Assembly (NCBI RefSeq): GCF_963506605.1
Contig: NC_083282.1
Coordinates: 95,976,001 to 96,040,000, forward strand
Source of the DNA: Zootoca vivipara
Lineage: Eukaryota
Direction of reading: 5' to 3'
DNA length: 64,000 nucleotides
A program made the translations under genes and the position numbers. Position 1 is the first letter of the stretch, and each line of letters opens with the position of its first letter. Under the pieces are notes generated by a model, which saw nothing but the letters and a program-made list of their open reading frames with translations, made no database searches and was not told where the DNA came from. Below, piece by piece: positions 24,401 to 35,988 of this stretch.

Positions 24401-27400
24401 GTTCCTGTTCAGTCCCCCTGCTGTCTGGAGAATGAAGATGTATACCGTGTGGCTGCCACTCTCAAACGCATTGCCATCCTGCACAGGTGAGCACAGGGAG
24501 GAGGGAGAGAACCAGGCAGTTCTGTTGTTCTGCAGGCCCCATCCTAGCTAGCATCCCAGCCCAAGGCTTTTAGACCCTCCCTCTGCTGCTCTGGAGCAGC
24601 CCCATGCTGCTTCTGTTGCATGGAAGGAAGAGGCAAGGACTGTCTTTTGCTTTTTTGTCTGCAGTGCTCATGACCTGACCCCGTGGAATTTCTTTGACCC
24701 CTGCATCCGATTCCTGCACCACACGGTGGACACAGAGGAGATCCCCAAGCAGGTACTGCAGGGTTGCAGGGAGAGTGGCTTGAACTGACGAGTGCCCTGG
24801 AAAAGTGGAGATGAACATAGGCACATGTGCCCACAGTTGCATGCCTGTGTCGTCTCACTGTTGCTACCACATCCTACTCCCTTCCCCCATTTTTGGGGGT
24901 GGGTACAGCCTTGCAGCTGCAGAGTGGAAGGTTCCTCACCACCCCAAATATTCTTGATCTTGCTTTGGCTGCTTCCATATCTGCCTGACTTCCTTCGTTG
25001 CAGGTGGTCATCTCTGCCATATCCTGTTCATACTTCTCACTCTATTGGGAGCTGTACCACCTCTGTGCCGCCGCCACAGCCTCTGACCCTCTTCCCAGAC
25101 AGGTGAGCAGGGCTTTTAAGAGCGGGTGGGTCTCCCTTTGCACCACCACACACTCATGAGACCACTCCTCCTTCCAGGAGCAACTGCTCAGCCTGAAGGG
25201 AAAAGTGGCTTCCTTCTGCTCCCTCTGTCAGAACTACCTTGTGGACATGGACCCCGGTGTTCAGCAGCAGGTGAGAGCAGCAGACAGGGTTCCTGTGTTC
25301 CCTATGGGAGTTGGGATTCTGGCTCTTGCCAACTTCGTGAAACACTCAAAAGAGCCGGGCTTCTTCTGTTGGCCACAAGGATGCTTGCTCATCTCTTGTT
25401 CACATTCTCCCTTCACAACATGAGAGAGATAAGTTGCCAAATCTTACAACCCCTTCCTTCTTATTCATATGGGTACAAGCACCACTGCCACACAACTACA
25501 GCATATAGCAAAGGACTCTTGATACTCTGGGCAGGAAACCTTGGGGTGCAGGTGGTCTTTTCATCATTCCTTCCTGTTGAAGGCTGTGGCCCCCCCAAAG
25601 GGAAATACTGGAGGCCAACCACTGGCCGTGCGGGTAATGTCAGGAAGGGTTTGGCATCTTGGATCATGGTCTCCACTTCTTGAGGAAAGACTTCTGGCAA
25701 GAGATGGGCTGCACCTCACAGAATGTGTTTGCTAAGAGTCTCACAAACCTGATCAGGAGATCTTTAAACTAGATCCTGAGAGGGAGACAACATTACAGTC
25801 AGAACACCAGTTACTGGGGACAATAACTTCATTGATGGGTAGGAGACTGAGCGGTGCTCCAGAAACCTGCTAAAGGGCAAGAAACTACAAGAAGGAACGA
25901 CGCATGGTTTCATTTGTTGCATGGCTTGGCCTTGTGCAGCTGATTTGGGGTTGGGGTTTGGGGGGTTGGGAGGCAGCAGCCCCAGGCAGGAGTCATGGAG
26001 GAGGAGAGGCATTGATTTCTTGCCCCAGCCACAACTGTAATGCAGTGGACAAGGAAGAGGCTACTTCTCCCCTTTGCGTGCCCAGAGGAGGGGCGTACAG
26101 AAACAAGGCAGTGTGTCCCTGCTTGCTGCCATTTTCCTTCCCCCTCCCCCATTTTCTAGGACTTGCTCGTGAATTGTGTGATGTCCCTTCCTGCCCCCTC
26201 ACTTTCTGTCTCTGGTTTCCCTGCCAGGCCTTTGTGGTGCTGACTGACCTGCTCATTATTTTCGGCCCTCAACTGCCGTATGGGGGCCACCGCCTTCTCC
26301 GGGAGCTGGTGTACGAGCCGGATGTTGCTTTGCAGTCGCAGCTGGCTGGCTTCCTTGTGGACCACGTCTTCAACCATGACCAGGTTGAAGGTACTGGGCC
26401 GGGCCCATGAAGCCACTGGCTGCAGGAGGGCAGGGGTCCCTGTGCAGAGCACCCTCACCCACCCTCACCCACCCTTCCCCTTGTTGGTCGCAGGCAGCCA
26501 GGATGAGATGCTCCAGATCGAGCAACTGCACCAGCGCCGCAAGCTGCTGGCCGGATTCTGCAAGCTCATTATCTACGGAGTCCTGGAGCTGAGTGCTGCC
26601 TCAGACATCTTCAAGCATTACTCCAAGGTGGGGGGGGGGCGGATGTGCCCAGGCTCTTGGCTCTGACATGGGTCCCCTTCCTCTTGCTCAGCGATGTTGC
26701 TGGACAGCTGGTTGGGTGCCAGATTAGCCAGCAAGGCCCCAAGAGATGCACGACAGCTGGTCCTCCATGTGCAGCTCTGGTGGGCTGCGGTTTGGGGGGG
26801 ATGTGCTTTCGGCATTACCTGGGGCTGTAATGCACAGCAGCTGCCTGGTGGTAGAGGATGGGGACCTTCTCCCAGGCTCCCAAGGGATTCTTTTCCCACC
26901 CTGAGGATGGGGAATATGTGTTACAGTTCAAAAGATCGCAGGCTCAGGGTACAAGTGCAAAGCATTAGGCACATAGCCAGAAGCACACTGAACTCGGATG
27001 ATCAGGCAGCAGCAGATTTTAAAGACCCTATTTCCTCACCCAAAGTCTCACCACTACTCAGGAGGCTGGTCGGGCCTGGCTGGGGGCGTTCTGTGGGCAG
27101 GGGTTCAATTCTGGCTAGCTTTGTGCAGCATCCACCTGGGGACAAACCCTGAGGTTCTCTGTTCTACATGATGGTCAGCAGAGGACTGTCATAATAGCTG
27201 TCTTTGACCCAGTCTTTCTGGCATCCTAGCAGATGGCACTGTTGGTTATACAGTGGTTCCACTCCTTCCTCCTGGGCAGATGGCTGGGAAAGGTTCCTGT
27301 CACAGTGGCCGGAGCGGGCTACTTCAGAGTAACGATTCTACACAGCTCTGCATTTTATTCTTTTATTGGTGCTGCGTATTTACAGTGCTGAAGTCATTGC

Positions 27401-30400
27401 TATATACACGGAGCTATGTGTTCAGTCGGGTTCAGAACCTCCGAATGGCTTTTGGCGCGTCTTTCTCCAACACAAAAGCCTCGGTAGACCCATCCTCTTT
27501 CCTCTCCTCTTTCTGCGCAATTCCGGAGTTGGGGGGATGGGTCTCCCCCCCTTATTTGCCCCTTCCTGTTCCACCTGAGACCCTGGCTCCGCTACCTTGC
27601 CTGAGCCTCGGACACGACTTCCTGCTTCCCCACTGGAATCGGAACTCTCTCTGCTTTCCCCTGTGCTCGGGGATGGGCTTGAACTCAGGAGGGGAGGGAC
27701 TTCGCGATATCCCCTGTCCCTCACATCCACCCCCCTTCCAAGCTCCCCTTCTCCCCTCCCCAGGTCCCCCCCGGGTGTCGGTGACGACTGGAAGCCTAAG
27801 AACTCAGTACTTTCCGAGCCCGTTGGTGTGAACACCTCCCCCCAGTCTTGCGAGCCCCCCCTTCCGCCTGGGAGGACTGGAATCCCAAAAAGTCCGTGGC
27901 GTCAGAGCTGGTGGGGGTAAAAATGTGCTGCCAGTCTGCTTCTTCCTCTGACTGAGTGGATCTCGGCGACGCCCATACTTCTTCCTCTGGTTCCTCAAAC
28001 TCCGCTTCCCATCCCCATGGTGAACTGCTCTCCAGTACTTCCTCCCTCTCCCCCTCCCCCTCCCTTTCCATGTGCCAGGGCTTGGGTCTGTGGGGAAAGA
28101 GGGCGTGAAATTCTTCCACCAAGAATTCCTCCTGTATTTGAGAGGCTGGGACCCACTCATTTTGGGATGGCGGGGCGTCCTCCCATGCCATGAGGTACTC
28201 CAGGCCCCCCACCCCTCTCCGTGAATCCAGGATGGCCGTGGCCTCATTGAGTTGCTCCCTGCCTTCCCTCTCCCCCCCTCCCTCGGGGGTTTGGTCGCTG
28301 TCAGCAGCGATCTATGAAACACTGGATGCACCCTCATGTCCTCTGGTAGTGCCAATCTGAAGGCCACCGGATTGACCTGTTGCGTGACCGTGAAGGGGCC
28401 CAGCCGTCTGGGCGCCAGCTTTTTGCACCTCCCTCTAATGGGAAGGCCCTCCGAGGACAACCAAACCTTGTCCCCCACCCTGATGACCTCCCCTTGTCGC
28501 CTGTGGCGATCTGCCCCCTTCTTGTACGCTTCCTTGGCCCTCTCCAAGTGCTCTCTGAGCTGTTGGTGCACCGTCTCTAGTTCCTCTGCCCAATCCTCTG
28601 CCCGTGGGCCCTCCTCCTCCTCCTCCCCCTCCCTCTCCGGGAAAGATCTGAGGTCGCGCCCATAATTGGCCTTAAAGGGCGACACCCCTGTGGAGACGTG
28701 CACTGCATTATTGTAGGCAAATTCCGCCAGTGGCAGGCGATCCACCCAGTCCGTTTGCCTCTGGCTGACGTAGCATCTCAGGTACTGCTGCAGAATGGCG
28801 TTGACCCTCTCCGCCTGTCCGTTAGTCTGCGGGTGTCTAGCCGTCGATAAGCTGACCTCCACCTGCAGGAGTTTCATGAGCCGCCTCCAGAACCTGGAAA
28901 CAAATTGGCGGCCACGATCCGAAATAACCCTTAAAGGTAATCCATGCAGTCTGAAGACGTGGTCAACAAACAGTTTGGCTGTCTCTTCTGCAGAGACCGC
29001 CCTGGCACACGGTATAAAGTGGCACATTTTGGACATAAGGTCCACCACCACCAACACTGCGGTCTTGCCCCTGGATGCAGGCAGGTCCGTGATGAAGTCC
29101 ATGGACACCACTTCCCACGGCCTGTGAGGTGTGGCTAAGGGCTCCAGCAATCCTGCTGGCGCTGCTCTGACTACCTTTGCCCGCTGGCAGGTGTCACAGC
29201 CCCGTACATAGTCTCTAACATCTTCCCGCACCCCTGGCCACCAGAAGTGTCTCATGACTAGGTGAGCGGTTTTGTCCCTTCCAAAATGACCCGCCGTCGG
29301 GTTGTCGTGCATTTGCTTGAGGATCTTACGTCTAAGCTGGGTCGTGGGCAGGTATAGTGCCCCCTTGTGGAAAAGCAGCCCCCTGCGTTCTGCAAAGTCT
29401 TTTGCCTGCACCCCCCCCCCCTCTCAGTTCTCTGAAGATGCGGGAGGCAAACTCATCTGCTGCCGTCAGTGCTGTGAGTTCTGCCTCGCTCACCACTGCT
29501 GCTCCGCAGGACCATGCTGATGGGGGGGAAATGTGCCTGGGTGCTGGTGGCAACTCCTGCTCCATGTACTCTGGTTTGCGGGAGAGGGCATCTGCCCTGA
29601 CGTTCTGCTCCCCCGGTATGTAGTGGATGGAGAAGTTGAAGTTCGAGAAGAACTCTGCCCACCGTATCTGCCGCTGGTTGAGCACCCTGGCTGTTCTCCA
29701 GAACTCCAGGTTCTTGTGGTCTGTGCACACCTGGATGGGGTGCTTGGCGCCCACCAGGAAGTGTCGCCAGTGCTGGAAAGCAGCGTGGATCGCAAGAAGT
29801 TCCCTATCAAACACCGTGTAGTTGCGTTCTGGCTGGGTCAGCTTCCTGGAGAAGAAGGCACAAGGTCTCCACTCTCTGTTGGCGTCCAGTTGCAACAGGA
29901 TCGCTCCCAAAGCCCTGTCTGAAGCATCGGTCTCAACGCGTAGGGGCGCATCCTGCACCACGTGGAACAGGTTTTGGTCCGAAGCGAACACCCTCTTGAG
30001 GCTTTCGAACGCTGCTTGCGCCTCCTGTGTCCACCTGAACTTCTGCTTGCCTCTCAGGCAGTCCGTGATGGGAGCCGTAACCCGTGAGAAGTTCTTGATG
30101 AATTTCCTGTAGAAGTTGGCGAAGCCTAGGAGGCGTTGGGCATCTTTGCGCGTCCTGGGGCTGTGCCAGTCCAGGATGGCTTGTACCTTGTCCTTGTCCA
30201 TCGCCAGCCCCTTGTCTGACAGTTTGTAGCCCAGGAAGTCTACTTCCCTGGTGTGAAACTTGCACTTCTCCAGCTTCACATACAGGTGGTTCTCCTTCAG
30301 GCGCTGCAACACCTCCCTGACATCCTTCACATGTTGCACTGGGTCGTTGGAATAGATAAGGATGTCATCCAGGAAGACCAAGCAGTTCTTGAAGAGGAGG

Positions 30401-33400
30401 GACCCCAGGACGTGGTGCATGAAGGCCTGGAAGCATGCTGAGCCCCCTTGCAACCCGAAGGGCATCACCAGATATTCAAAAGAGCCCAGGGGCGTGAACA
30501 TCGTGGTTTTCCACTCATCGCCTTCCCGGATCCTGATTAAGTTGTACGCCCCCCTCAGGTCTAGCTTGGTGAAAATCTTGCCCCTGCGTGCCGCTGTCAG
30601 GAGATCGTCCACTCTGGGCATGGGGAAAGCCACTGGCTCTGTCACTGAATTCAGTCGTCTAAAATCCACCACAAGGCGGCGCTGTTGCGTGTCTTTCTTG
30701 TCCACCCAGAAGACCGGGCTGCCCCCTGCTGCCTTGCTTTCTCTGATGAACCCCCGTTTGAGGTTCTTGTCTATAAACGCACGCAGATCCTCCAGCTCCT
30801 GATCTGACATGGCGTACAGCTTGGCTGGGGGTATCGTTGCCCCTGGCACCAGGTTGATCTGGCAGTCAAAAGACCTGTGTGGGGGCAGGTGGTCGGACTC
30901 CGCTTCGCTGAAGACCTCCTGCAGGTCCCAGTATGGTTTGGGTATCGCCTCACCCCCTTTGACGTGCATGGTGGCCACCGTGGCTATTGGAGGCCCCTCC
31001 CCTGGTTGGTGCTGCATGCAATGTTCCAGACAAAAGTCCGACCCAAACGTGATGCATCTCTGGTGCCAACTGATGGAGGGGTCGTGGCGCGCCAGCTAGC
31101 TCATGCCCAAGACGATGGGGGGGTCTGAGATGGTGGTGACGTTGAATGCCAGTGTCTCAGAGTGCCTTCCCACCGTCATTCTCATGGGGGGGGGTTTGAT
31201 GAGTGATGGCCCCTCCCAGCAGCTCCCTGCCGTCAATGGTGGCTACGTGCAAGGGAAAGTCCAGCTGCAGAAGCTGTATTTGGTGCTCTTCTGCAAAGTT
31301 TCTCGAGAAGAAGTTGGCAGATGCACCACTGTCAATTAAGGCGAGGACTGTCAGGGGATAGCCATTTGGGAGCGTTAACGTCACTTCTAGAACCACTCCT
31401 GCTCTGGGAGGGGTGGGCTGGCTCTGCTCCGCGCTGTGCGGGTGGGTGGGCTGGGGCTGTTGTCTGCTGACTGCGCCTGGCTGCTGCCCCTTGTCTCCTG
31501 CAACCAGGCTTTCCCGTTTCCCTGCTGTGGTGCTGCGTCAGTGGGGGAGGGCACCACCGTTCCCGCCTTTCCTTGCCACTCTCTGCGATGTGGGCAGTCT
31601 CTGACGAGATGCTGGGGGGAGTTGCAGAGAAAGCAATTCCCGCCCCTTCCCTCCTTGCGTCTTGTCGCCGCTGGGGTTTGAAAAGCCCGCGCGCGCTATC
31701 AATTTGCATGGGTTCCTGGTCCTGGCTGGTCCCAGGCGTGGCTTGGAAGGGTTGTTGGGGGAGTGGCTTCTCCTGCGACCGTGGGAACCAAGCCCGCTTT
31801 GCGCGCGTTGCTTGCTTGTCGTTCCACCGGGATTCCTGTCTCACCCCCACCGCCAGAGCCGCTTTGCTCAGCTGATCCATATTACTGGGCTTTGGACCTC
31901 TCGAGAGCTCATCTTTCACATCCTCATTCAACCCCAGGTAGAACGCCGCTTCCATCGGAGGCGAGTGCAGTTCCCACCCCAGTCGGTGCACTAGCATGGT
32001 GAATCTCGCCCAATATTCGCGAACTGTCATTGTTCTTTGCCTTAAATTATGCAGTTCCTCCTTGGTCTGGTCCATATGACTATCGGACGCATACATAGTT
32101 TTTAAAGCCTCTAGAAATAGTTTGACATTCTTCATGCAAGGATTTTTTGTCGCAATTAACGGTCTTAGCCACTCCCTGGCTGCCCCTGTAAGGTGTTCCA
32201 CAATAAACGCTACCCTGTGCTCATCATCAGGGAACTCATCATGGTGCAGCTCAAGAGCATACACGATCTCAGTCTCAAAGCCATGATATTCCCTCGGGTC
32301 TCCATTGAACTTGCTTACTAGGGTTCCCGCTCTCCTTCCTGGCAGCACTTGGAGTTGGGGGGCCCCTCCCGCCTTGTTTTTCTCGGCATCCAGCTTGTTT
32401 TGGAGCTCTACCGCCACCGCCCTTAATTGCTGCTCTTTTTCCTGAAGCGCTCTCACCTGTTCCGCAAGTTGTAGCCGGTCCTCCTGGACCTTCTTGGTTT
32501 CTTCTTTAGCTGCCTTTAATTCCCCCTGTGCCTGCAGCGCCTGTTGCTGCAGGTCCTGTTGGGCTTTCTCCGCGATCTGCCGCCATTTCTCCACCTCTGA
32601 CGCACTCATCCCGGCAACTCCAAAGTAGCCCAAAAAAAGATTCGGAGGTTGCTGTCACAGTGGCCGGAGCGGGCTACTTCAGAGTAACGATTCTACACAG
32701 CTCTGCATTTTATTCTTTTATTGGTGCTGCGTATTTACAGTGCTGAAGTCATTGCTATATACACGGAGCTATGTGTTCAGTCGGGTTCAGAACCTCCGAA
32801 TGGCTTTTGGCGCGTCTTTCTCCAACACAAAAGCCTCGGTAGACCCATCCTCTTTCCTCTCCTCTTTCTGCGCAATTCCGGAGTTGGGGGGATGGGTCTC
32901 CCCCCCTTATTTGCCCCTTCCTGTTCCACCTGAGACCCTGGCTCCGCTACCTTGCCTGAGCCTCGGACACGACTTCCTGCTTCCCCACTGGAATCGGAAC
33001 TCTCTCTGCTTTCCCCTGTGCTCGGGGATGGGCTTGAACTCAGGAGGGGAGGGACTTCGCGATATCCCCTGTCCCTCACAGTTCCCTCTGCCTGTGCTCC
33101 AGCCCAGCCCCTTGGCAGCCTTCAGAGCCCAGTCAAAGGCATCTCAATGGCCCCTGAGTGCTGTGCTTTGGGGGCCTGAGGTGTCTCACGCAGGTTGCCA
33201 GCTGCTGTCCAGCTGCCTGATTTTCCAGTTAACCAAAATAGCCAGCCAGTGTATTGTTCACAGAAGCAAAACTTGAAATGCATAAGTCATGGCTCTTGGG
33301 CATAAGTGGATGTTTGGAAGCCCATTTCCAGTTGGACTCTAGCCAAGGAGTGCTGCCTGCTAGGACTATTGCCCATCCTTACCCATCCCATCATAGGGAA

Positions 33401-35988
33401 TAGACCTTTCTGTGTGTTTCTCTATGGCTTAAGCCTCTGCCCTGGGACTGGAGTGACGTTAGTGTTCTTCCCACTGTTGCTTCTTTCTCTGAATCACTCT
33501 TTGCCCCCACCAGTCCTACGACAACTACGGGGACATCATCAAGGCGACACTGAATGAGACCCGCCAGATTGACCGGACCGAATGGGCTCACACGCTGCTA
33601 CTTACTCTGCAGCAGGTAATGGGGAAAGGAGCCAAGAGGTTGGGGAGAGGCCTTGGGTGACACTCCCTTGCCCTTCCAGTGTGGTGTAGGGGTTAAGAGC
33701 GGTAGACTCCTAATCTGGGGAACCGGGTTCGTGTCTCCGCTCCTCCCCATGCAGCTGCTGGGTGACCTTGGGCTAGTCACACTTCTCTGAAGTCTCTCAG
33801 CCCCACTCACCTCACAGAGTGTCTGTTGTGGGGGAGGAGGGGAAAATAGATTGTTAGCTGCTTTGAGACTCCTTCGGGTAGTGATAAAGCGGGATATCAA
33901 ATCCAAACTCTTCTTCTTCTTCTTCCTCCTAGTTGCTGACTCAGCTGCTTCTGGAGCAGGGACCTGCAGGCATCAACTCGGCCACCTTCCTGGAGATCCG
34001 GGATTTGGCACGGCGCTTCTCTCTGCTCTTTGGGCTGCACCAGCTGCAGAACCGCTCCGCCCTTGTCACACTGCATAAGTGAGGATGCTGCTGCCAGAGG
34101 CTTCTCCTGTCTTGCAGGGTGTGGGAAGTAGTGGGGGGGGCAGGTGACACGAAGCCAGTTGAGCAGGTGGAAGGGTGGGACTTGGGAAGCCAGAGATGGC
34201 TGGTCCACTGGCTCAGTGCTCTCTACATCAACTGGCAGTGGCCTTGCAGGGTTCTGCCTGCAATGGACCTGGGCGCAAAGTAGCTGCTTCTGCCCTGAAG
34301 CACAGCCTTGCCCAGTTCCCAGGTGTGGGAAGGGCAAGCCAAGAGGGTGGCTCCCCAGGCCCAGGAGGCATCCCGACTGCACTTTCATTTGCCATAGGGA
34401 TGGGATAAAGTTTGCCTTCCAAGAACAGGTGGCCTCCGACTCAAGGCTGGACCTTGTCCACTTGCCCTTCTTGGAGCTGCTGAGCGAGTTTTCTCCACGG
34501 CTGTTGTCTCCCGACAAAGCCTTACTGTGAGTGACTTGCGAGGGAAGAGGGGAGGCTGGAAGGTCCCTGTGCCCTTCGGCTCCTTTCTCTGCTGTTAAGC
34601 CTAACGCACCTCCTCCCTCTGGCAGCCTGTCCTACCTCAAGAAGATCAGCCAGGCACATCTGTCCTCCCGACATGGAGAAGAGCACCTCTGGGGCTCGCT
34701 CCTGATCTATCAGCGCTCCTTGAGCCCCCAGGAGGAGACAGCCCCCTCACCAGATGCACCTGCCCAGCAGAAGCCTGGACCACCTGCCAAGAGGCGGCAC
34801 CTGAATGGTGGGAGGCGGAATGGAGGGGGGCAGGGGGGTGGTGCTTGTACGGCTGCAGAGTTGGAAGTGGAAACGGCCATGTTTCTCCTGCCTTGGCAGA
34901 GTCCCTTGGGCATAGCGATACCAGTTTCTCCTCCACTTCCGGCAGCCGCTTACAGAGCCCCTTGCTGACATCCACCACCCTGCGGAGAAAAGGCCACTCA
35001 GCTGCCCAGCTGCTGGGCCAGGAGGACTCGGGCTCCGAGTCGGAGTTTGTGCAAAGGTGAGCTGGGCTGGGGGTGGGCTGGGACTTGCTAGCACCCTCCC
35101 TGCAGGTGGCTTGACTTGCTTCTCTTCTGCCTTTTCAGCCAACCACCGCTGGGGCCGCAGCAGCGCCACAAAGCTCCTCGCCGCCAGCTGCAGCCCAAGA
35201 ATCGTGGCAGCCTAGGCCCGCAGCTGGGGTGGTAAGTTTGTCTGGGAAGCTGGAGAGCGGGCAATAGGGTTTCGCCACGAGGCCTCTGGTAATGTAATGT
35301 TTTCCATGAGAGAAGAACAAGTGATACAAGATTCTGTATACATTATTTTATGGGTTTGTGGTTTTATTCATTAATATGAATAGTCATTATTACAATAAAG
35401 CTAAGCTGCTTGGCATCTGTGCATCCAGAGAGAGATTCCTGTGACCAGATGGTCTTTGCAGGGCAGCTGTGGAAAGGCAGAGGCGGGACAGGCACCAGCT
35501 TGGAGCCATCCAGACTGCCTCCCCAACATGGCCAGGCAGCAAATGTCGCTTTGCTGGGCCAAGACATGCCTCTGTTTCTGCCTCACAGGCTGACCCTGAT
35601 GGAAGTGGGAGAGGCGGTGGTGGAAGAGTCTGAGACCAGCGAGGAGGAGGTCGCCTTTGGCAAGGTGAAAAGAAGCCCCTGGCAATGGGGGGGGGGGGAG
35701 AATGATGCCTGCCCCCAGGTCCCCTGAGAGCCCCAGCCAGCCTGACCTGCAGCACCTGGTCCTCCTTGCGCCCTGGTTTCCCTCTTGGGGGCGGGAGGAA
35801 GGGCTGCTTTTGGCTTTGCTGGAGTGACTCCACTTTGGCCCGCCTGGCTTCTGTCCGCAGGAGTCAGAGCTGAGGCCTCTCCTTGCTTGCAGGATCTTAC
35901 CTAATGGCTTCTTAAAGGATAAATGAGCGGGGCAGAGCAATATGGCTCCCCTTAACACCTGCTTTCCCTTTTCCTGCAGGATTCCTGA
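8885..35988 (+). CDS. STAG3: Cohesin subunit SA-3 (meiotic stromal antigen), multi-exon
   Basis: Approximate exons: 8885-8934, 9029-9115, 9230-9329, 10103-10199 ([11 protein letters not shown]), 10348-10424, 10531-10736 ([15 protein letters not shown]), 10832-10983, 20501-20574 ([10 protein letters not shown]), 20666-20790 ([12 protein letters not shown]), 21236-21334, 21476-21555, 21811-21918, 22151-22247, 22318-22429, 23182-23286, 23379-23471, 23688-23777, 23915-24109, 24413-24485, 24665-24752, 25003-25101, 25177-25269, 26228-26389, 26494-26627, 33513-33614, 33932-34078, 34398-34526, 34626-34806, 34900-35056, 35138-35231, 35589-35664, 35980-35988. STAG/SCD motifs plus linkage to AP4M1/MCM7/COPS6 identify STAG3. 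The last exons are less certain. Confidence 0.9.
11095..11460 (-). mobile_element. RTE-clade LINE 3' end
   Basis: [17 protein letters not shown]...[13 protein letters not shown], a typical RTE C-terminus. Confidence 0.6.
11475..13922 (+). mobile_element. Degraded LINE RT (RTE-X-like) interrupted by an L2
   Basis: [17 protein letters not shown] (~11475), [11 protein letters not shown] (~13263), [13 protein letters not shown] (~13378). Confidence 0.6.
11545..12905 (-). mobile_element. L2-clade LINE 3' part
   Basis: [42 protein letters not shown]. Confidence 0.9.
13923..15797 (-). mobile_element. Unclassified, probably degraded copia-derived element (with a small CR1 3' insert at 15308-15390)
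   Basis: Remnant motifs [12 protein letters not shown] (protease-like, ~15560-15600), degenerate zinc-knuckle-like strings, [16 protein letters not shown] linker; TG...CA ends. Confidence 0.35.
16255..18819 (+). mobile_element. Young, 5'-truncated CR1 LINE with nearly complete ORF2 (EN and RT) and (ATTCTATG)n tail, inside older CR1 pieces (15850-16250, 18820-19400)
   Basis: [51 protein letters not shown]; a few frameshifts. Confidence 0.95.
19455..19812 (+). mobile_element. BovB 3' fragment
   Basis: [18 protein letters not shown]...; (CAA)n tail; near-identical to 1670-2030. Confidence 0.9.
21640..21780 (-). mobile_element. Old tRNA-derived squamate SINE fragment
   Basis: Minus strand GGCTGGAGCTCAGTGGCAGAGCACATG tRNA-like head. 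Confidence 0.5.
27298..27725 (-). repeat. 3' LTR
   Basis: Identical by eye to 32653-33080; minus-strand AATAAA x2 at ~27355-27367. Confidence 0.95.
27422..31522 (-). pseudogene. pol: Pol (protease, RT, RNase H, integrase, chromodomain, acidic tail), disrupted
   Basis: [36 protein letters not shown] zinc finger, SMDFIT...SDRG...GQAER, GPF, YLMAW. TGG>TAG at 31096-31098; frameshifts at ~31190, ~29415, ~28300, ~27855. Confidence 0.9.
31387..32609 (-). CDS. gag: Gag (coiled coil, capsid, CCHC zinc knuckle), one apparent frameshift at ~31690
   Basis: ATG at 32609; [18 protein letters not shown]; [14 protein letters not shown] appears in a shifted frame; stop at 31387-31389. Confidence 0.9.
32653..33080 (-). 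repeat. 5' LTR
   Basis: Identical by eye to 27298-27725. Confidence 0.95.
33676..33925 (+). mobile_element. tRNA-derived squamate SINE (Squam3-like) with (CTT)n tail
   Basis: A-box TGGTGTAGGGG and B-box GGTTCGTGTC-like; body GGGTGACCTTGGGCTAGTCAC; L2-like 3' end. Confidence 0.8.

Follow-up and report, generated by a model that had tools for sequence, protein, structure and literature searches.

Tandem candidate LEDGF/HRP2-docking motifs in the integrase tail of a lizard chromovirus with a cage-less chromodomain

A recent chromovirus insertion in a cohesin gene

The window analysed here, 64,000 nucleotides of Zootoca vivipara DNA (NC_083282.1, positions 95,976,001 to 96,040,000), contains a whole copy of a Ty3/gypsy chromovirus. 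Its borders were set by the element ends, a 5-bp target duplication (GTTCC) and the flanking exons. TG...CA LTRs, the 5-bp duplication and the order gag-PR-RT-RH-IN are all present in this copy and place it among the chromoviruses. The following features were assigned:

27298..33080, minus strand: Ty3/gypsy chromovirus, whole copy, 5.8 kb
32653..33080, minus strand: 5' LTR, 428 bp, TG...CA, 0 mismatches to the 3' LTR
31332..32654, minus strand: gag ORF (Pfam Retrotrans_gag, Ty3_capsid)
31157..31537, minus strand: aspartyl protease frame (Pfam)
29332..31095, minus strand: reverse transcriptase and RNase H frame (Pfam)
28300..29423, minus strand: integrase with H2C2, rve core and Tf2-type SH3; the window copy departs from the family reading at ~28300
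28105..28242, minus strand: chromodomain; central cage Trp kept, first and third cage aromatics gone; pN/pS 0.06
27973..28017, minus strand: acidic Trp-containing stretch without FxGF, like the middle motif of three-motif relatives and presumably a decayed unit
27880..27933, minus strand: TIM-like motif 1 (W-x-x-I-F, 9-residue S/T/D linker, FLGF)
27791..27844, minus strand: TIM-like motif 2 (W-x-x-V-F, 9-residue S/T/E linker, FLGF)
27298..27725, minus strand: 3' LTR; about 100 Pol codons read into U3; RNA 3' ends pile up at 27350
27461..27541, minus strand: basic stretch ending LLCW, the Pol C-terminus, within the 3' LTR; pN/pS 0.17

At the integrase C-terminus an SH3-like module (PF24626) is followed by the chromodomain (PF00385), and both belong to one ORF in natural copies. 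Since the two 428-bp LTRs are identical and a 5-bp target duplication is present, the insertion is very recent. The copy lies antisense within the intron 26628-33513 of a STAG/stromalin cohesin gene. The original prediction had placed it in an intron of a germline-expressed gene; the intron is borne out, and germline expression would follow if the gene is STAG3, as synteny with MCM7/COPS6 suggests. One intronic copy is expected by chance. The element is covered by RNA reads from three runs of a single study, two of which also reach the motif region. As the reads are mostly 90-99% alike to the window copy, they stem from other copies. A search of sequencing runs listed no carrier registered as RNA. 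Six reads of one run skip 1144 bases (window 29728-30873) with GT..AG ends on the sense strand of the element, whereby most of the reverse transcriptase is removed; they could represent a spliced integrase message or a deleted copy.

Tandem TIM-like motifs in the integrase tail

Two motifs follow the chromodomain, at exactly the minus-strand positions that had been predicted (W to last F: 27933-27880 and 27844-27791). W, [IV]FTPT and FLGFQSS are common to both, with different codons. The prediction had named one slip in the frame, in a G run near 27855. This slip is present and is confined to the window copy, but a short deletion at ~28300, at the junction of the SH3-like domain and the chromodomain, breaks the integrase frame as well. 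Consequently, the integrase core of the window copy shares its frame with neither of the motifs. In the family, they are in frame with the integrase, as anticipated: one ORF joins the SH3 end, the chromodomain and both motifs in 14/30 close copies (11 of these 14 also have the integrase core motif within that ORF) and in 34/40 copies of a younger sister subfamily. From the SH3 end through LLCW the frame is open in 9/30 close and 31/40 sister copies, and open frames of 1379-1380 codons span the tail region in many genomic copies. Pol thus ends neither before the motifs nor directly after motif 2, as its ORF stays open for about 100 further codons within the 3' LTR.

The motifs are under purifying selection, which had also been predicted. 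Among 11 natural family copies, pN/pS is 0.06 for the chromodomain and 0.21 and 0.09 for the motifs, versus 0.53-0.56 for three flanking stretches. The motifs show 9 nonsynonymous and 19 synonymous changes against 80 and 52 in the flanks (p=0.007, an approximate value, as the 11 copies are related and not independent). Related lacertid families carry one to three units of the type hydrophobic-x-x-[VI]F, acidic linker, FxGF. One or two motifs have been retained in Podarcis elements, though the aligned tail is only 42-48% identical, and at least one unit was found in 18/20 loci of older families in the same genome (a count biased upward, as the query held the motif). The expected conservation in relatives holds, as FxGF, across divergent lacertid families; the fish, amphisbaenian and snake chromoviruses among the matches are without it.

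An alignment of 37 distinct units, all from the Zootoca genome, revealed how the pattern is maintained. The units were picked by a pattern permitting linkers of 7-11 residues, so that the invariance of F, G and F is by construction; their codons are free to vary. TTT and TTC are used 19/18, 21/16 and 19/18 times at the three phenylalanines, all four Gly codons occur, and seven different residues are found at the x of FxGF. The F and G codons are hence synonymously saturated. The linker has 8 residues in 13 units and 9 in 24; it contains 2-6 D/E and 5-9 D/E/S/T, and K/R are absent in 33/37. A hydrophobic residue at -4 from the first F (hydrophobic-x-x-hydrophobic-F) is present in 36/37 units, and S/T-x-x-D/E sites in 32/37. 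The linkers of the window family are less acidic than some of its relatives' and would therefore rely on presumed phosphorylation. Variants exist: P0203 has LxGF, as do four decayed proteins of Zootoca, and one unit of P0003 has FEEF.

Could the motifs be a neutral by-product of local duplication in a low-complexity acidic linker? The two motifs of the window family clearly arose by duplication, and the linker readily suffers slips at homopolymers. Against this explanation stand the low pN/pS, the saturation at synonymous sites and the persistence of the motifs in a deep-branched clade; it is largely refuted by the codon data, and we attach hardly any credence to it. When a natural tail of 275 amino acids was shuffled, two FxGF arose in 0.07% of 200,000 shuffles, and [VILM]F-x8/9-FxGF occurred by chance 5 times per 1.39 million six-frame residues (80 random flanks).

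Three further observations concern the tail. First, motif number turns over, as three different units are found in each of the relatives L033, L034 and L039; in the window family, earlier units seem to have decayed and the last one to have been duplicated. Second, four uncharacterized Zootoca LOC gene models (P0049, P0200-P0202) are decayed clade members with LxGF replacing FxGF, and are probably annotated element copies, not host genes. Third, the basic LL[CN]W stretch, which divergent families have retained, is under protein-level selection (13 nonsynonymous/23 synonymous, p=0.013 vs flanks). An Arg nine residues before its Trp is reminiscent of the nucleosome-binding motif of CENP-C, and the stretch might also act as a nuclear localisation signal.

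In their FxGF and their linker, the units have the sequence features of TIMs (TND-interacting motifs) of the LEDGF/HRP2 type. TIMs consist of a short helix and an acidic linker of 8-16 residues, in which CK2 phosphorylation is frequent, with FxGF as an optional third part, and several host partners carry them in tandem (PMC9987994). In the lizard units, FxGF has a free x and is preceded by an acidic S/T-rich linker within the range of 8-16 residues. AlphaFold predicted a folded chromodomain and a disordered tail (pLDDT 45-55 beyond residue 70); ahead of the linker, the model has a three-residue helix at pLDDT ~53 in motif 1, whereas motif 2 is without one. When 177,635 PDB sequences were searched with a profile built from the 37 units, the sole match at E<=10 was the JPO2 motif of 5YI9, a fusion with the LEDGF IBD. 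This match belonged to the predicted class of target; it is weak (E 4.3, not significant alone) and covers the linker and FxGF portion only. The JPO2 stretch in PDB 5YI9 is the only host motif compared directly. PDB searches with single motifs and motif pairs gave unrelated chance matches only and did not recover 5YI9, and an ESM Atlas search with the P0002 tail gave nothing at 0.9 or above. For the lizard HDGFL2 IBD (P0157 458-548) together with motif 1 of the window, the predicted complex scored 0.01 in a run without alignments or folded controls.

As to possible partners in the host, its genome contains the HDGFL2 IBD exons and four HDGF-family PWWP loci; one HDGFL2 exon shows 97% identity to a Zootoca record. 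One of the PWWP loci, on C16, looks like PSIP1 by its signature residues, and the host probably has this gene. An IBD exon of PSIP1 was not recovered among the 3-5 candidates scored in the host genome.

Short motifs are degenerate, and the tail might bind something else, such as another TND protein, an Atg8-family protein via W-x-x-[IV], or the Gag or chromodomain of the element itself. A LIR-like core, counted by the LIR consensus, occurs in 24/37 units, and the strongly conserved cage-less chromodomain must bind something. But the LIR core is missing in 13/37 units, for which reason LIR was rejected as the unifying motif, and it leaves the following F, the spacing of 8-9 and FxGF unexplained. 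FxGF is present in all known LEDGF and HRP2 partners and lacking in many other TIMs (PMC9987994). We therefore regard another partner as improbable. Mimicry of FG-nucleoporins was rejected too, the sequence being FxGF and not FxFG. Of the partners named in the original prediction, LEDGF and HRP2 are in keeping with the features of the units, whereas the TFIIS and IWS1 domains are not indicated; FxGF points to the former (PMC9987994). Taking all variants together, whether for tethering, for gene-body targeting or for purposes other than targeting, binding of LEDGF/HRP2 in some role seems quite probable to us from the motif pattern.

Loss of the chromodomain cage in the motif-bearing clade

Chromodomain proteins (244, one partial of which was dropped) were compared at the aromatic cage positions Y24, W45 and Y48 (HP1 numbering). 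All 11 motif-bearing proteins retain at most one of the three aromatics. By comparison, two or three are found in 224/232 proteins without the motif, and all three in 194/232; in this second group, 81 proteins have a tail shorter than 30 residues, and CBX-like host proteins are also included. Eight cage-less proteins do not show the pattern, and six of them are lacertid relatives in which the tail is shifted, variant or decayed. Among the matches, Rhineura, Vipera and fish chromoviruses lack FxGF and have kept the cage.

In a midpoint-rooted tree of 65 SH3-chromodomain rows, from which rows without an SH3-end anchor were left out, 16/16 motif-bearing rows form one clade (100/100), together with one extra row whose tail is apparently frameshifted. 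The clade has deep branches, and its named members are all Podarcis or Zootoca. On this tree cage loss and motif gain are a single event; their association is one of anatomy, not a repeated statistical correlation.

The lizard element shares the Gag-PR-RT-RH-IN-SH3-chromodomain anatomy and the 5-bp target duplication with chromoviruses of group I (MAGGY, fish sushi-like) and of group II. Group I chromodomains keep a three-aromatic cage and bind H3K9me2/3 (PMC3350952), whereas the lizard clade does not keep this cage. Its pattern, with the first and third aromatics lost and the central Trp kept, fits group II, in which the first and usually the third aromatic are lost and which has been described only in plants (PMC3350952). 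The lizard clade combines the group II pattern with FxGF. The cage-less chromodomain is thus a vertebrate parallel to plant group II, presumably reached by convergence. No other part of the tail is as constrained as this domain (pN/pS 0.06), so that it should have a function other than methyl-lysine reading. An extension of Pol into the 3' LTR, as in the lizard family, is also known from plant CRM elements of group A (CR motif); by description, CRM elements are set apart in that their chromodomain is replaced and they are centromeric, whereas the lizard family keeps its chromodomain and is dispersed.

Insertion sites and the role of the tail

A genome-wide search with the tail sequence gave 1602 candidates, 40 of which were scored. 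On C1 (0-91 Mb), 48 near-identical young copies were found among the matches listed, many with open Pol frames. They represent a large recent burst, which by extrapolation would amount to roughly 750 copies genome-wide if evenly spread. The insertion sample comprised 40 of these 48 copies, which belong to the sister subfamily; a perfect 5-bp target duplication was found in 32/38. For each copy we examined the adjoining 8.7 kb in both directions, except for two 5' flanks that could not be located; 80 stretches drawn at random from the same region served as controls. Exons were sought with a simple finder, which ranked the real exons of the window top, and up to four candidates per flank were passed on to Pfam searches. 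Retroelement domains and two implausible weak matches (L091, L113) were excluded.

Host exons were confirmed in 6/40 and 9/38 insertion flanks and in 8/40 and 11/40 controls. There is accordingly no enrichment of exons beside young insertions (15/78 vs 19/80 random; OR 0.77, CI 0.33-1.75). The comparison covers one chromosome, its flanks are paired and a few of its controls overlap; the proxy is insensitive, and selection has acted on the copies since they inserted. GC, CpG and strand skews, as proxies of transcription, did not differ between insertion flanks and random stretches, and only one of eight measures did, the repeat-masked fraction (0.245 vs 0.189, p=0.03). The original prediction that insertions are steered into gene bodies thus found no support. 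It could be upheld by assuming that LEDGF tethering targets transcribed genes as in lentiviruses and that selection against genic insertions masks the bias. Only inherited copies are visible, the proxy (a Pfam-confirmed exon within 8.7 kb) is insensitive, and exons lie on both sides of the window copy and of several sampled ones (L098/L198, tetraspanin; L100/L200, kinase plus PH). However, the upper confidence limit of the OR is 1.75 in near-identical copies, 32/38 of them with intact target duplications, whereas HIV integrates 75-86% in genes (PMC8149907). A genic bias of lentiviral size is unlikely among surviving copies, and we consider masked gene-body targeting quite improbable.

A different distribution was noted for older subfamilies, which are concentrated on C9 (45-75 Mb) and C18 (0-8 Mb; L144-L163) amid long young LINE/LTR ORFs, while the youngest subfamily is evenly spread, also along C1. 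This suggests a low-recombination or repeat-accumulating region. The C9/C18 flanks have more long ORFs, mostly of other retroelements (11/20 vs 6/40 and 7/40), and we read the clustering as retention in repeat-rich DNA. Targeting of zinc-finger arrays was rejected, as a C2H2 match was found in 0/20 of these flanks.

In our preferred scenario, the disordered C-terminal tail, remaining on the mature integrase, would bind the IBD of host LEDGF/p75 or HRP2. Phosphorylation of the S/T linkers at CK2-type sites would tune the affinity, and the tandem motifs on a multimeric intasome would give avidity. Such a tether would serve to capture broadly marked chromatin efficiently and not to target gene bodies sharply. 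The flat insertion pattern fits a broad tether of this kind, because the PWWP domains of LEDGF and HRP2 read H3K36me2 as well as me3 (PMC9987994) and HRP2 has been reported on silent chromatin with HP1, POGZ and MPP8 (PMC4797281, PMC9856275). The weak link is the step from binding to targeting. The motifs might bind LEDGF/HRP2 without any part in site choice, serving nuclear retention or stability of the integrase, recruitment of repair, transcription of new copies, or as a decoy against HRP2-POGZ-HP1 silencing. The same sequence evidence would hold for these roles, and they agree with the flat insertion pattern; moreover, homologous-recombination repair is reported to involve both LEDGF and HRP2, and POGZ, HP1 and MPP8 are reported associates of HRP2. 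Yet the motifs occupy the position of the putative targeting domain of chromoviruses (PMC3059260) and they co-occur with cage loss, so we hold a purely non-targeting role to be rather unlikely. That the tail docks on LEDGF/HRP2 through its tandem motifs, tethers the intasome to chromatin and thereby replaces H3K9me reading is, in our estimation, a proposal with about an even chance of being correct. For the lineage, we lean slightly towards a swap of targeting modules, in which the H3K9me cage was lost and multivalent, phospho-tunable LEDGF/HRP2-docking motifs were gained independently of lentiviruses, with a second selected motif inside the LTR.

Host-factor tethering by integrases is already known, and the combination of partner and motif as well as the module swap appear to be new. 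No report of LEDGF/HRP2 docking-motif mimicry by a retrotransposon or chromovirus was found in the literature covered, mostly titles and abstract openings. POGZ, one of the host TIM proteins, is transposase-derived but a domesticated host gene. Host TIMs (JPO2/CDCA7L, KMT2A/MLL1, IWS1, POGZ, ASK and fly JIL-1) share with the lizard units a hydrophobic pattern ahead of the linker, the acidic S/T-rich linker, FxGF, a disordered setting (predicted for the lizard tail) and tandem copies (PMC9987994, 10.1101/624023, PMC11910589, PDB 5YI9). As candidate TIMs, the lizard units differ from them in being encoded by an active mobile element and in having Trp or Val at -4. Lentiviral integrases, the only viral hijackers named in PMC9987994, would share with the element the proposed host factors, LEDGF/p75 and HRP2, and the same bimodal chromatin-tether logic. 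HIV integrase, however, makes no use of the unstructured motif; the dimer surface by which it binds is pre-folded and depends on D366 of LEDGF (PMC6382798), and the strong genic bias of lentiviruses is not seen in the surviving copies of the lizard element. In other elements, too, a short part of the integrase engages a host factor. This part is the integrase tail in Ty3 and MLV. Ty1 (AC40), Ty3 (Pol III machinery) and MLV (BET proteins) all engage a chromatin or transcription factor in the manner proposed here (PMC7459421, 10.1101/2021.07.27.453949, PMC8149907). Their motifs and partners differ from those of the lizard element, and none is reported with FxGF in these sources.

Judging from the sequence comparisons, this retrotransposon likely draws on host factors that HIV also uses, but reaches them in another way. 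Its motif variants, which number in the dozens and have diversified in nature, provide material for learning the TND-TIM binding code. As there are over a thousand candidate copies, many of them young, genome and resequencing data that already exist would suffice for a test of insertion sites. An old question also becomes testable, namely what the tails of vertebrate chromoviruses target after the loss of the methyl-lysine cage. Hijacking of LEDGF/HRP2 is otherwise known only from lentiviruses. If our interpretation is true, the element would be the first natural case of TIM mimicry in mobile DNA, and no other has been shown to exploit LEDGF/HRP2 through a short motif; independently of lentiviruses, it would have found its own route to a hub that lentiviruses reach by a folded integrase surface.
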